Below are positions 6,879 to 12,908 of a stretch of DNA of 64,000 nucleotides, piece by piece. The stretch spans positions 1-64,000 of the forward strand of contig CAWJTV010000018.1 in NCBI GenBank assembly GCA_963845755.1. Direction: 5' to 3'. A program made the position numbers and the translations under genes. The stretch is from an uncultured Planctomycetota bacterium (GTDB lineage: Bacteria; Planctomycetota; Planctomycetia; Isosphaerales; Isosphaeraceae). Position 1 is the first letter of the stretch. Each line of letters opens with the position of its first letter. Below the pieces are notes generated by a model that saw only the letters and a program-made list of their open reading frames with translations, ran no database searches and was not told the DNA's origin.

Positions 6879-8182
6879 TCAGCCCCCAAACTTGCGGCCC
6901 AGGCGGTTGAGGCACCCCCGCCAGCCCTGCGCGTGAGCATCCTTGTCCGGCTCGTCCCGGAAGCGCTCATGGGTCAATACGAGATCGGTGCCGCCTCTCC
7001 CGGGACGGAATTCGACGGTCACCTGGGTTTCTGGCCAGCCGGGCTTGTAGGGTTCCCAACCCCACGTGTAGCTCAGGGTCCGGGGTGCGTCCACCCGGCT
7101 GTAATGACCGGAAACGAATCGGTAATCCGTCCGACCGGGCAAGAGCATGCCGATGCGATAGCGCCCCCGACCTGGGGGTCGACCTCGCCGATGGTCGGGC
7201 CGAAATCGTCCGAGGGGGCGTACCAGTCGGCCATCTGGTCCGGGTCGATCCACATCGCGAATACCTGCTCGGGCGGGGCGGCGATGTGCATCTCGATGCG
7301 GACCGTCGACTCGGGCGTGCGCGCCAGGTCCGTGATGTCGCGATGCATGAGGCGCGCTTCCTGGTAGCGGCGATCTCGCTCGGGCTCGAGCGCGCGAAGG
7401 ACGATGGGGTCGATGCGAGGATCCGTGGCCGCCTTTCGCGAAGGGGGCACCCGGTCCGGCCCCGGGAGCTCGCGCGCGAGCAGCTCGTAGAAGACGACGC
7501 CTGTGGAGAAGATGTCGGCGCGGTGGTCGACGGCCTCGGGCATCGTGATCTGTTCGGGGGCCATGTAGCGGAGCGTTCCGACCACCCGTCCGTCATCCGG
7601 TCCGCGCACGATCGCCCCGGGGCCGAAGAGCGTGGCCAGGCCGAAATCCACCAACCGCACCCGTCCGCGCGAGTCGACCAGCACGTTCTCGGGCTTGATG
7701 TCCCGGTGGACGACCCCGGCGTCGTGGGCATGCTGGAGGGCCTCGGCGATCTGCGGCACGAGGTCGAGGGCATCGCGCTGGGTGATCGAGCCGTCGGCCA
7801 GGAGCTGCCGCAGGCTGGCCCCCTCGACGTATTCCATCACCAGGCCAAAGAGGTCACCCGCCTTGCAGACGTCGAACACCGTCGCGATGAACGGGTGCCT
7901 CAGCTTCGCGAGCGTTCGCGCCTCGCGCAGGAACCGGTCTTGGAATGCGTCATCGGTCTGGAGGTCGGGCCGGATGACCTTGATGGCGACGAGCCGGTCC
8001 AGGAACGGTTGACGGCCCTTGTAGACGATCCCCATCCCGCCATGCCCCAGCAGCTCCATCACCTCCAGATTGGGGAAGCGCGCGGCCAGCTCCGCGGGCG
8101 TGGGCAGCATGAACCCGGCTGGCGAAAGGAGGGCCGTCTCCTCGCCCCTGGCCGTCGTGGCATCCGCCTCGGAATCTGCCAT
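6879..8182 (-). CDS. Ser/Thr (Hanks) protein kinase fused to a C-terminal SRPBCC/AHSA1-like domain (1 frameshift at ~7166)
   Basis: GHGGMG, VAIK, HRDIKPEN, DFGLA and GTLRYMAPE motifs, then IAAPPEQVFAMW...DPQVGG|RYRIGM...LSYTWGW...GWRGCLNRL. Confidence 0.85.
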
Positions 8183-8452
8183 GGTGCCAGGTCCTCCCCC
8201 TCGTCCGGGCATTCCTGGGTCCTCGTGCCTCACGACCCACGACTGGACATTCTAGCATTGACGTGGCAGGACGTCTTGTCGGGTTTCCGGATCCGTTTGC
8301 GTGCTTCGGTCGGATCGACCGATGCACCTTCGAGAGTCTACTCGCGGCTCGATACCCGTCTGTAGGCGTGTCACTCTCGACTCGTGAACGAGCCATTAAG
8401 AGTGTCAGCCGTCACGCCGCCCTTTTGGGCGGCACCCGAACCGATGAAAAGG

Positions 8453-9489
8453 GCTGCCGCCATGACGCGCGACCTGCTGGATCTGTCCGACTGGCTGACC
8501 AGCCAGGGGGTCACGATCGTCGCGATGGAATCGACCGGTTCCTACGGGAAGCCCGTCTTGAACATCCTGGAGCCGAGCCTTGCCGTGGTCCTGGTCAACG
8601 CCCATCACCTCAAGCAGGTCCCCGGTCGAAAGACCGACGTCAAAGACAGCGAGTGGATCGCCCAACTCCTTCAGCATGGGCTGTTGCGCCCAGCTTCATC
8701 CCGCCGCGACCGACCCGCGAGCTGCGGGATCTGACGCGACAGCGGACCCAACTGATCGGCGAGGAGGCCGCGGTGGCCAACCGGATTCCGAAGGTCCTGG
8801 AGGATGCCAACCTCAAGCTGGGGTCGGTCGCCTCCAACGTCCTGGGCGTTTCCGGCCGGGACCTGATCGAGGCGGTGATCCGGGGCGAATCCGATCCGGT
8901 GAAGCTCGCCGAGCTGGCACGGCGGCGACGGCGATCGAAGAGCCCGCAGCTCCAGCAGGCGCTGCGGGGCTCGGTGACGGAACACCACCGCTTCCTGCTG
9001 CGGTCGCTGATGGACCACCGGTCGCACTTGGAGCGACTGATCGCCCGTTATGACCAACGGATCGACGAGGCCCTGCGCCCTTTCGAGGCGGAAGTCCGCC
9101 GGTTGCTGACGATCCCGGGGGTCGCTCTCCGGGTCGCTGAAGTGGTCCTGGCGGAGATCGGGCTGGACATGTCCCGCTTCCCGACGGCTGGTCACCTCTC
9201 GTCGTGGGCGGGTCTGGCCCGTGGCAATGATCAGAGCGCCGGTAAGCGGCGCAGGGGTCGGACGACGCCGGGCAACCGCTGGTTGAAGACGGCGTCGGTG
9301 CAGGCGGCTTGGGCGGCGTACCGGGCCCAGGGAACGCACCTGTCGCGGAAGTTCCGCCGGATTGCGGGCCGTCGCGGCAAGAAGCGTGCGGCGGTCGCGG
9401 TGGCGCATACGCTCCTCGTGATCATCGACCACCTGCTCAAGGAGCAGACCAACGACCAGGAGGTCATGGGGGAGAACGAAGCGGCCTGA
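8453..9489 (+). pseudogene. IS110-family transposase/recombinase, 5'-truncated and frameshifted
   Basis: MESTG, NAHHLKQVPGRKTDVKDSEW, LLTIPGV, AEIGLDMSRFPT and GNDQSAGK motifs. The N-terminal GLDVHK-type segment is absent. The element probably ends near TTTTCAGAGCA (~9599). Confidence 0.88.
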
Positions 9490-9604: not shown

Positions 9605-11311
9605 TCATTCCTTTCTGGAGCCGATTCTGCGGGACGTCCTGGGGCGGCCTAAAGGGCCGCAGGAACGGCCCCAACAGTGTGGCATGTTACCGTCTGTCGG
9701 GGCCGTTTGGGCAAAAGGGCGAGGGCTCACACGATACACAATATGAACCGCCTCGGCATCGATCTCGACCTTCTTGACCAGTGCACAAATGATCCGACGA
9801 CGCGTCGCCACGTCGCTGGTATCCAAACCGGCGCGTACCTGCGCCCCGAATTCCTCGATCCGACCCATCACCAACCGTAACTCCTCCCGTTGCTGTTCCT
9901 CCTGGTCCATCGCCCGACGCTCCGACTCCAATTCTGACATTCGTGTTCGAGAAATATCCATATCTCTCTGGAATTTCTCCTTCTCGATGTATCCGTCGGC
10001 GTACATCTCCACCAGCCGCGCCAGCCTGCGGCGGACCTGACCGATCAACTTGTCCAGGCTCCGACTCGACTGAGTCGTCCCCTCGCCTCGGTTCGCCCGA
10101 CTCAACCGCCGCTCGAATTCCTCAGCCAACCGCTCCGGCTCCAGCAACAACCCGCGCACATCGGACCACACCGCCTCGTCCAGACGTTCGATCCGGATCG
10201 CCGGATTGTCGCAGATCCGGGCCCGGCCGGCGAAGGACTCGGCCTCCGCCCCATAACAGCGGTAATAGCCATAGCGACTCCCTCCCTTCTTCTTCATGGC
10301 CCGACCGCGATACGCGTAACCACACCGCTGGCACACCACCAAGCCCGCCAGCAGATGGCGCGGCCGGGGGGCCGCCTGGCCGGGATGTCGGCGGTGCTCC
10401 GCCAGCCGCTCCTGCACGGCCTCGAACAGGGCCGGCTCCACGATCGCCGGCACCGGGATCGGGATCTGGTCCTCGGGGGGCGTCGCCGCTTTGGCGGTGT
10501 GTCGCCGTGGAAACTCGGGGACTCCCCGACGCGGGCGCAACCGGGGACGGGCCGGGACGCAATGGACCTTGTTGAAGTGGGCTGTCCCCATGTAAGCCGG
10601 GTTGCGCAGCATGCCCAGGACCGTGGCCCGATCCCAATGCGCCTTGCCCGTGCGGGTAAGGAGCCCGCGTTCTCGCAATCGTCGGCACACCTGACTGAGC
10701 GAACATCCTTCGATCCCCACCCAGGTGAAGATCTCTCGGACCACCTGGGCCTCGGCGAACTGGACGACATACCGGGCCGCGCCACCTCCCTCCTGCTTGG
10801 TGTGGTAATGGTATCCGTAAGCGCGCCGCCCAGGACGCTGACCTGGCCCGACCGCGCCGCGTAGAGCCGGCCGCGGCGACACTTCTCACGGGCCTTGACC
10901 CGCTCGTATTCGGCGATGATCCCCTGGACTTGCAACAGCAGTTGAACCCTCGGGGCTCTCATCGAGGTCGTGATTGAGGAAGACGACCTCGACGCCCTGG
11001 CGGCGCAGCTCGTCGACCACGACCATCTGATACGGGTAATCCCGTGCCAATCGGTCGGGACACTCGATGTAGATCCGGTCGATCGCCCCGGCGGCGGCCG
11101 TGTCGCGCAACCGTTCCAGGGCGGGGCGCCGGAAGGTCTCGCCCGAATAACCGTCGTCGGCGAATTGGAGTTCCTGGGCGACGGTCAGGCCATCGGCCTG
11201 GATCCGCCGGCGCAACAGATCGAGTTGACTGGCGATCGTGTCCTCTTGGGCCTGCTGTTCGGTGGAGACCCTGGCGTACAAGGCGGCGCGGCGGTCGATG
11301 GGTTCGGTCAT
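9605..11311 (-). CDS. Large serine recombinase (resolvase + recombinase + zinc-ribbon domains), frameshifted
   Basis: AALYARVST catalytic Ser, DDGYSG..RPALERL, DRLAR, MLRNPAYMG, LLAGLVVCQRCG...YYRC and a coiled coil. Joined from 10886..11311, part of 10294..10962 and 9605..10882. Confidence 0.92.
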
Positions 11312-11671
11312 CGGAGGGCCCCCGAACGGCCTGGTTGTGTGAACGAATTCAAATCAGAATCAACGAACATTTGTGGTCGTGCCGGCGTCGTCAGCGGCCT
11401 CCGGATGATGGGGAGGGCCTGCTCGAAGGCCAAGGCCAGGGCGCGGAGCTGGCAGCGGGAGGGGACGAACTCCCGGTGGATGCGGAGGCTGTGCCGTCCC
11501 AAGGCCGATCGTCGTGTCATGTCCGCTCTCCGTGGTAGGACGTCGCGAGGACGATCACCTCCATGCAAGCAGCAATCCGGCGTCAGGGTCGGGTTCAACG
11601 CCCTCTGAGGCGGCTCAGAGGGATGACAGTATCAGGTATCAACGGGCTATATGCCACTCTGTTGGGGTCAT
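9665..11671 (-). mobile_element. Compact IS-like large-serine-recombinase element inserted into a REP hairpin
   Basis: 17-bp inverted repeats CCCCAACAGTGTGGCAT (9669-9685) / ATGCCACTCTGTTGGGG (11651-11667), 16/17 match. Flanking direct repeat AGGA(AC) at 9661-9666 and 11672-11677. Confidence 0.8.
11308..11520 (-). CDS. Small basic ORF (70 aa) translationally coupled to the recombinase
   Basis: ATG at 11520 with upstream GGAG; its stop overlaps the recombinase start (ATGA at 11308-11311); lies inside the TIR-bounded element. Confidence 0.6.
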   Translation of the reverse strand: MTRRSALGRHSLRIHREFVPSRCQLRALALAFEQALPIIRRPLTTPARPQMFVDSDLNSFTQPGRSGALR

Positions 11672-11845
11672 AGGAACCCAGCCTGGGGTGAAACCCCAGG
11701 ACTCGTGCGCCCCGCGGTCTTGCTTGTGCACCCCGAGGGGTGCCGGAGGAATCTCCTGCGGCCCTTCAGGCCGCCCGAGACGTGGGCGTGCCGTGGACCC
11801 CGGGTTTCACCCGGGGCTGGGCTGCCGCGGCCCTTCAGGCCGCCG
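11672..11845. repeat. REP-like palindromic cluster (GCGGCCCTTCAGGCCGC and GGGTGAAACCC hairpins); its left part lies at 9643-9666
   Basis: Multiple GC hairpins in inverted arrangement. Confidence 0.75.
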
Positions 11846-11988
11846 GAGATCGGCTGTTCTTCGGCGCAACCTATCTGTTAAGCGCTCTAGAAAGCCTTCG
11901 ATATCCCAGGTCTTGTGCTGATCAAGTGTCTCTGGATCACTCGATCGCGCCTCGGATCCGCTCAAGCCAGTAAGGGCTTCCTTTCCCA

Positions 11989-12908
11989 TCAGCTCAGGCT
12001 GATCGGCTGGTAGATCCACATCGTCCCGCTCGTCAGGTCGTTGAGGTCGTAGGTCCCGATCTGGTCGGTGTAACGCACGGAGTCGGGTGTATCCGCGAAG
12101 CCGACGTTCTGCTCGAACACGGTGATCGTCGATCCCGAGACCGACTCGACGATGGCCGTGTGATGGTCCGCGGTTTTCGTCGTGGAGGACCAGGAGCCAT
12201 TCGGGTGCGTCGTCGTGTGGACGAGCGTCACGTCGCGGAACTGAATCACGTCGCCCGGGACGACGCCGGCCAGCGAATGGCTCGCGGTCGTCACCGTCGT
12301 GACCATCGTCCCCCAGACATAATCCGAGTCGGATCCGGTGGGTCCCAGTTTGGACTCCGACTCCGCCCCGGCCGCGGCGTAGGCGGCATCAACCAGGTCG
12401 GTGCACTGGCCGCCACCGACCTCCTGACCGAGGTGGGCTTCGGCGAACGCCACGATCTTCTGGTTGACTGTGGAGATCTGGGGGGCGGAGAGGGCGTCGG
12501 CGTCGGAGTGGGGGTAGGAGTCGGCGTCGGCGTCGGTGTCGGTGACGGTGACGGCGTCGGAGTGGGGGTAGGAGTCGGCGTCGGTATGAGGGTTGGGCTG
12601 GGAGGTATCACCCAGACAGGCAGTGGAGTCGTCGGATGCCTCGGGTGAGTGTTTTGGGCATGGACATTGGGCTTGGAGGGGTGCTTGGTCTTGTGGGCAT
12701 GGACATTGGGCTTGGAGGGGTGCTTGGTCTTGTGGGCGTGGGCATCGGGCTTTGGGGTGTGCTTGGCCTGATCGGCATTCAAGGTGTGCACCTCGACAGT
12801 AGCCCTCGGGAGCTCGCCGAGGGTTCCCGACGATAGCAGGCACTTGTCTTCAAGCGCGTCGAGGCTGGGCCAGAGCCGGACGCGGCGGGCGTGGCGTGAG
12901 ATGTTTAT
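11989..12908 (-). CDS. Putative exported protein: LEPR-XLL-like N-terminus, His/Lys repeats, Pro-Thr linker and NlpC/P60/CHAP-like Cys-His domain (frameshift ~12490; start codon reads ATA)
   Basis: RHARRVRLWPSLDALEDKCLLS; 39-bp repeat encoding KTKHPSKPNVHAH; (PT)n; VGGGQCTDLV...GDVIQF...HHTAIV. Confidence 0.7.

Follow-up and report, generated by a model that had tools for sequence, protein, structure and literature searches.

A 2-kb, two-gene element with the anatomy of a serine integrase system in the REP repeats of an uncultured planctomycete

Introduction

Large serine recombinases (LSRs) are usually the integrases of genomic islands or phages, and that of phiRv1 uses an attB site located inside a REP13E12 repeat. 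LSRs serve as genome-engineering tools, and how they choose target and direction is an active question. The anatomy of serine-integrase attachment (att) sites, including the role of core symmetry in the orientation of insertion, has been described (PMC3783163). The gene of DsiB, an integrase of Dehalococcoides ssrA islands, overlaps attP and attL, and its authors suggested that full function may require the circular form; alignments of this protein were reported to diverge at the C-terminus (PMC3146451). Multi-targeting LSRs form a clade in which the DUF4368 domain is common, the criterion being more than three unrelated target gene clusters for one 90% cluster, and among the target genes listed in the same source 6 of 1069 have transposase activity, which is not an enrichment (PMC10083194).

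Here we report a small element from a stretch of 64,000 nucleotides (the window; assembly GCA_963845755.1, contig CAWJTV010000018.1, positions 1 to 64,000) of an uncultured member of the Isosphaeraceae (Planctomycetota). A preliminary description, made from the sequence of the window, had proposed a cargo-free, multi-targeting LSR insertion sequence that may use REP repeats as attB. No description of such an element family was found in the literature searched, which did not include subscription journals or ISfinder.

Results

The element spans positions 9664–11672 between two GG cores (9662–9663 and 11673–11674), is approximately 2.0 kb long and carries two genes (Table 1). The unit had previously been placed at 9665–11671; its size holds, and its boundaries shift to the bases next to the cores. 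Its 17-bp inverted arms were recovered as described (9669–9685 and 11651–11667, complementary at 16 of 17 positions). On both sides the core is followed by 5 bp and then by the arm, and the resulting 22-bp arms flank the GG; the arm at 9664–9685 encodes the motif H-C-W-G-R on the minus strand. The hexamer AGGAAC (9661–9666 and 11672–11677), noted earlier as a direct repeat, is repeated in the window copy only and is not a target duplication. Across six copies of the element, the 2-bp core is the only sequence common to both junctions; it is GG on both sides in four of them and differs on one side in the other two (GA in the copy on contig C42, AG in that on C13). Judged from the sequence, the inverted ends are putative attP arms around a 2-bp crossover core and not transposon ends, and the anatomy of the junctions is that of attL and attR of a serine integrase and not that of a DDE insertion sequence.

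In both the REP and the intron clade (see below), the 3' end of the integrase gene has a hairpin formed by an inner arm copy. In the 8–9 bp core of this inner arm nearly all changes are A to G, with G-U pairs kept (own count); no pair changed on both sides was found, and an ungapped alignment fits only 13 rows of the intron clade. Searches of the element for an Rfam match and for a sigma-70 promoter-like site detected none.

Table 1. Coordinates of the element, its target and the related copies. Positions refer to the window unless a contig (C) is given.
Feature	Position	Strand	Remark
REP hairpin 1: left B half-site of the target	9643..9661		83 empty units elsewhere span the core
GG crossover core, left junction	9662..9663		
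attP arm at the integrase 3' end: 5-bp spacer + 17-bp arm (9669-9685)	9664..9685		
Subterminal inverted repeat, inner copy of the arm	9664..9707	-	conserved in REP and intron clades
Large serine integrase gene	9605..11311	-	Resolvase, Recombinase and zinc-ribbon domains
70-aa ORF, candidate directionality factor or regulator	11308..11520	-	conserved
25 codons + stop, continuing the integrase frame only via the circle junction	11595..11672	-	motif LIPD[ST]VI
attP arm at the element 5' end: 17-bp arm (11651-11667) + 5-bp spacer	11651..11672		
GG crossover core, right junction	11673..11674		
REP hairpin 2, other B half-site of the target	11675..11701		
Other, inverted member of the REP pair, intact and empty; core GC, not GG	11792..11856	-	
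Second-family copies	C22:804-2824, C6:31937-33953, C16:2838-4853, C24:276-2292, C3:156926-158945, C47:14625-16639		L003, L004

The genome contains six full copies of the element (C18, C42, C11 with two, C13 and C20), which are 99.45–100% identical to the window copy. All six interrupt the short spacer that separates the two hairpins of the repeat, at the identical base and with the identical orientation. Under random insertion, a probability of about 3e-28 is obtained for five more copies landing on this very base in this orientation. The outer flanks of the copies are unrelated, and the REP variants that host them differ in both hairpins and in arrangement; because the hosts diverge far more than the element copies, the insertions must have been independent. 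A profile of the REP repeat yielded 116 matches, including 83 empty units that span the site and 32 inverted pairs within 300 bp, and the core is GG in 61 of the 78 empty units that were parsed. Removal of the element rebuilds an intact REP, as had been noted, and near-identical empty alleles of the window site are present on C19 (94.4% identity over 251 nt), C41 (93.5%) and C5 (91.7%). Larger islands with other boundaries, which had been considered earlier, are contradicted for the six copies, whose flanks rejoin. Together with relatives in two genomes that are flanked by multi-copy REPs of their own, these results support the proposal that REP units serve as attB for a cargo-free LSR element.

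The genome has 10 matches to Y1_Tnp, and in the six cases where a contig holds both, none lies within 45 kb of the REP family. A tie to a REP-associated transposase was thus not found, and the term REP refers here to shape and copy number only.

A 43-bp stub of an element end (C9:40974–41016, L005) lies between two inverted REP arms with a GG core at each joint; it may be what a deletion left of two elements within one REP pair, or the inner inverted repeat may have served as a site. The neighbourhood of the window copy includes a gene for a Ser/Thr kinase fused to an AHSA1-like domain (7073–8233, minus strand), a frameshifted IS110-family transposase gene (8263–9489, plus strand), which ends near the host REP and has no second copy in the genome at the search threshold, and a gene whose product combines Pro-Thr repeats with a CHAP-like domain (11989–12843, minus strand).

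As assembled, the integrase gene consists of two ORFs of 141 aa (11311–10886) and 425 aa (10882–9605), and the true path uses the third frame from an extra base at 10945 to the place behind 10820 where a base is missing. The LSR that had been called full has three Pfam domains (PF00239, PF07508 and PF13408, all above cut-off across the pieces) and is split by two 1-nt indels in the assembly. All six genomic copies carry 1-nt indels, each at different places, and none has an unbroken ORF. In short-read contigs, the extra base at 10945 is absent and the base behind 10820 present in all three covering runs, which come from one study and whose contigs collapse all element copies. The family sequence is therefore intact, and assembly error is the likelier source of the indels in the window copy. 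Freed of indels, the gene at the window locus has 568 codons, the last 18 of which come from REP and flanking DNA. The four cysteines of the zinc ribbon are invariant in 76 aligned sequences, and the protein has weak sequence matches to the chains of TP901-1, SPbeta, TnpX and A118.

No stop codon interrupts the integrase frame ahead of the attachment site; as reported before, the frame crosses the element end and stops at 9605. Varied C-termini are found in the six inserted copies and in the 120 homologues listed, which have unrelated tails after a C-x-G-R-like motif. REP-like tails were seen in 25 of 32 close homologues, a weak result whose pattern was defined after viewing the tails.

When the element ends are joined in silico, the integrase frame continues into 11672–11598 with 25 codons and a stop, giving a protein of 575 aa; this circle geometry was resolved for clades of at least 40% identity. 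Beyond the arm, the tail has a pN/pS of 0.37 (4 sequences), 0.38 (14) and 0.16 (16) in three clades, and the other sense frames have values of 1.1–2.8, all of which are descriptive ratios and not P values because the sequences are related. None of the 34 tails contains a stop codon, and variation falls mostly on third codon positions (9/14, 11/14 and 9/10 columns). The antisense frame that shares these third positions is also low (pN/pS 0.24–0.58), as the sharing would lead one to expect. The sole candidate place for a start codon reads GTG, CTG or GTT, so that no start is shared. A tailed, circle-form integrase of 575 aa is very likely made and selected, and the codon-conserved tail is the best, albeit indirect, support for a circular intermediate. 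The search for circle junctions suggested earlier returned none from the contigs of 4 of 13 listed runs (contigs drop rare forms), from 121 genomes or from viral contigs (intron-clade pattern only), and no circle-form tail was present among the 120 homologous proteins listed.

The 70-aa ORF (11520–11308, minus strand) overlaps the integrase start by ATGA, as first described. Its conservation upstream of homologous LSRs, an expectation of the preliminary description, was borne out by a profile that found it at 78 of 78 loci with at least 44% identity, 38 of them outside the training set. None of 16 more distant loci reached the profile threshold, and most of the nine inspected show a similar ORF by eye. 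Within this genome it occurs only in 12 element copies, and databases hold 468 relatives among 1011 candidates. The conserved core comprises residues 12–40, with a strand-like segment and a helix (predicted at 22–39) kept across the 78 loci; the predicted structure has one helix (mean pLDDT 64). In three clades the core has a dN/dS of 0.48, 0.23 and 0.22, and the tail of the ORF has values of 0.66–0.92. No Pfam or NCBIfam family matched the ORF, none of 120 listed relatives has a Pfam domain, and its Atlas matches are unnamed and all under 0.9. Directionality factors are structurally diverse, share no fold and bind the second DNA-binding domain, to which some of them, being small proteins, add strands or helices (10.1101/2024.06.11.598349). 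Given this diversity and mode of binding, a directionality role fits the small ORF, and by analogy we lean slightly towards a factor that aids excision.

Relatives of the element are found in 28 of 101 genomes of the host family, and others in Alphaproteobacteria, soil metagenomes and plasmids. A clear arm pair was recognized at 94 of 127 loci (33 were dropped because ends were missing or the repeat was unclear), and 93 of these 94 span 1900–2070 bp; arms were sought in fixed windows only, and the loci include duplicates and close kin. The flanks give stronger evidence: matches to Pfam were obtained for 18 of 23 flank pieces, and rejoined flanks hit consecutive profile positions (RVT_1 123/126, Transposase_mut 255/256, IS66 154/155); further flanks match DDE_Tnp_1, MULE and, below cut-off, rve. 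Sister clades of the same layout sit in other REPs, in reverse transcriptases of group II introns and in transposases of the IS5, IS66, IS256 and IS3 families, and in a quick tree the targets sort by clade (those of several loci, e.g. L102, L011 and L020, were read from the junctions). The clade of the window element (60–100% identity) is flanked by hairpin repeats. Empty sites numbered 11 in genome G096 and 48 in G099 (controls 0 and 2); one copy in G096 has a diverged flank, and the repeats of G055 lie outside this count. The geometry of arm, 5 bp and core was present at 13 of the 14 REP-flanked loci tried.

Three loci of G099 (L104, L106 and L107) are nested in the intron clade. Their host repeats form a second REP family, both orientations occur, and one half-site of these repeats resembles the element's own arm. 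Their position is best read as a natural change of target. By eye, the REP, intron and IS5 half-sites have in common a C-rich inner and a G-rich outer part, which may make target switches easy. For a Listeria phage integrase, the outer binding motif is known to lie 5 bp further inward in attB than in attP. Here this shift peaks at 5 in two clades and at 4–5 in one, and at 2 in the family of the window element and the three REP-switched loci.

The genome also harbours a second family of six copies with the same layout (protein 45–57% identical) and a palindromic AT core. Their insertion point in the reverse transcriptase genes of group II introns is the PQG..SP motif; both orientations occur, even within one and the same intron gene, and two of the copies have common flanks. 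A single orientation in six of six copies with the GG core and both orientations with the palindromic AT core match the prediction of serine-integrase chemistry (PMC3783163).

Some relatives have features of their own. At the right end of L011 (G048), the right arm is duplicated in tandem (~22 bp). A member of ~2.04 kb from a cultured strain (L144:1615–3651; NC_007961.1, Nitrobacter hamburgensis X14 plasmid 3) interrupts an IS5-type transposase at its RW-x-VER motif. Plasmids pWW53 and pDK1 carry a 44% homologue, which on pWW53 (NC_008275.1, L143) has a similar small upstream ORF and is followed by a second unit of small ORF and recombinase.

Discussion

The anatomy of the junctions and the six insertions make it probable, with good confidence, that the element moves by serine-integrase recombination, via an excised circle, into another REP unit with a GG core. 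The integrase of an inserted copy, ending in a locus-specific, REP-derived tail, would excise the element at the GG cores, probably with the help of the 70-aa protein as directionality factor. Circularization would rebuild attP and complete the gene with the conserved 25-residue tail; the full-length enzyme would then recombine attP with any GG-core REP unit, and insertion would strip the tail again. There is an even chance that the tail is a built-in switch in this direction, between an integrating form on the circle and a resting or excising form in the inserted state. Copy number would rise when a circle from a sister chromosome or from incoming DNA inserts elsewhere, and landing in repeats and other mobile genes would offer many targets at little cost to the host. 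Tentatively, we see here an unnamed, widespread family of LSR insertion sequences that parasitize repeated DNA, set direction by splitting the integrase gene at attP and encode a new small directionality factor.

Other readings agree with parts of these data. TnpX and TndX are not known to need a directionality factor for excision, and it is possible, if rather less probable than a role in excision, that the same element with the same target excises without one too and that the 70-aa protein regulates or inhibits expression or activity. Its lack of a family match, its single helix predicted at low confidence and its tight translational coupling to the integrase would suit a regulator, and the tail switch alone could give directionality; against this, some known factors are small and have no common fold (10.1101/2024.06.11.598349), and the core kept at 78 loci fits a factor, without being proof of one. 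It is unlikely that conservation of the tail at the 5' end reflects a role as DNA (binding site or promoter) or a small peptide of its own, with the integrase having only one functional form. The searches that returned neither circle-form protein nor junction, the constraint on the mirror antisense frame and the C-terminal divergence reported for DsiB (PMC3146451) would agree with that reading, but the third-position variation in precisely the frame that continues the integrase, the 34 tails free of stops and the unshared start codon speak for a translated extension.

The remaining two explanations concern how the copies arose. That one old insertion spread passively with its REP pair, through a REP-associated tyrosine transposase or segmental duplication, is very improbable: the Y1_Tnp genes in the genome and the two sister-family copies with common flanks would allow for it, but the six REP hosts differ while the element is >99.4% identical, and none of the six Y1_Tnp matches on shared contigs comes within 45 kb of the REP family. 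Least credible of all is an origin of the unit as the leftover end of a larger island or prophage. LSRs are commonly integrases of such elements, and 33 of the 127 loci have no usable end pair; however, joining the two flanks restores an intact REP or gene profile, which leaves no room for cargo.

In this family the autonomous unit is as small as it can be, natural attP/attB pairs are many and target switches are known; the family also offers a candidate new directionality factor as well as a testable second control, the circle-only protein tail. If true, the natural target switches would show how a serine integrase is retargeted. Its insertions are a further way for transposases and intron genes to be inactivated, and the family calls for caution, as integrases taken from inserted copies may miss the true C-terminus.

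Several known classes were compared and rejected. Target duplication with ends of the insertion-sequence type, and with it a DDE insertion sequence, disagrees with arms that begin 5 bp inside the ends and with a 2-bp core as the only shared sequence, and no DDE domain was found in the element. The IS607 family, short serine transposases that begin with the DNA-binding domain and have little target specificity, was rejected by score (NF033518, 33 bits against a cut-off of 110), by the N-terminal catalytic domain and by the fixed target, and a REP-targeting IS110 element, which would have a DEDD recombinase and a non-coding guide RNA, by the absence of a DEDD domain and of an Rfam match and by a 5' end under codon-level constraint. 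REP-targeting insertion sequences of the IS110, IS3, IS4, IS256 and IS5 families (IS621, ISPpu9, IS1397) are likewise small, multi-copy and fixed in their REP position, but they use DEDD or DDE enzymes, and a serine recombinase is absent from the families listed in that source (PMC1525189). TndX-like multi-targeting LSRs with DUF4368 likewise occupy many sites per genome (PMC10083194), whereas here one conserved motif is hit repeatedly, in six of six copies, and DUF4368 was not detected in the integrase. The label cargo-free is supported, and the label multi-targeting, in its published sense, is not.

DsiB comes closer in that its gene likewise overlaps an att site and has no stop inside the element, but it belongs to a multi-gene module of cargo islands with a single-copy target gene, and the accessible text gives no codon-level test of a circle-specific tail of the kind made here (PMC3146451). 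The phiRv1 integrase (Rv1586c) likewise belongs to a serine integrase element beside a multi-copy repeat; phiRv1 differs in being a many-gene prophage, and REP13E12 is listed as a protein-coding repeat and not a short hairpin REP (PMC1931498). Both are partial precedents. With the LSRs of phages and islands (A118/LI, phiC31, Bxb1, TP901-1, SPbeta; CcrB, XisF), the integrase has in common the order of domains, the four zinc-ribbon cysteines and attP arms symmetric about a 2-bp core, although it scores far below the cut-offs for XisF (105 of 375 bits) and CcrB (104 of 900 bits). The element passes the sequence tests for a phage serine integrase system and appears to work like one; it differs in having no phage, replication or conjugation genes, a total length of 2 kb and many copies per genome.
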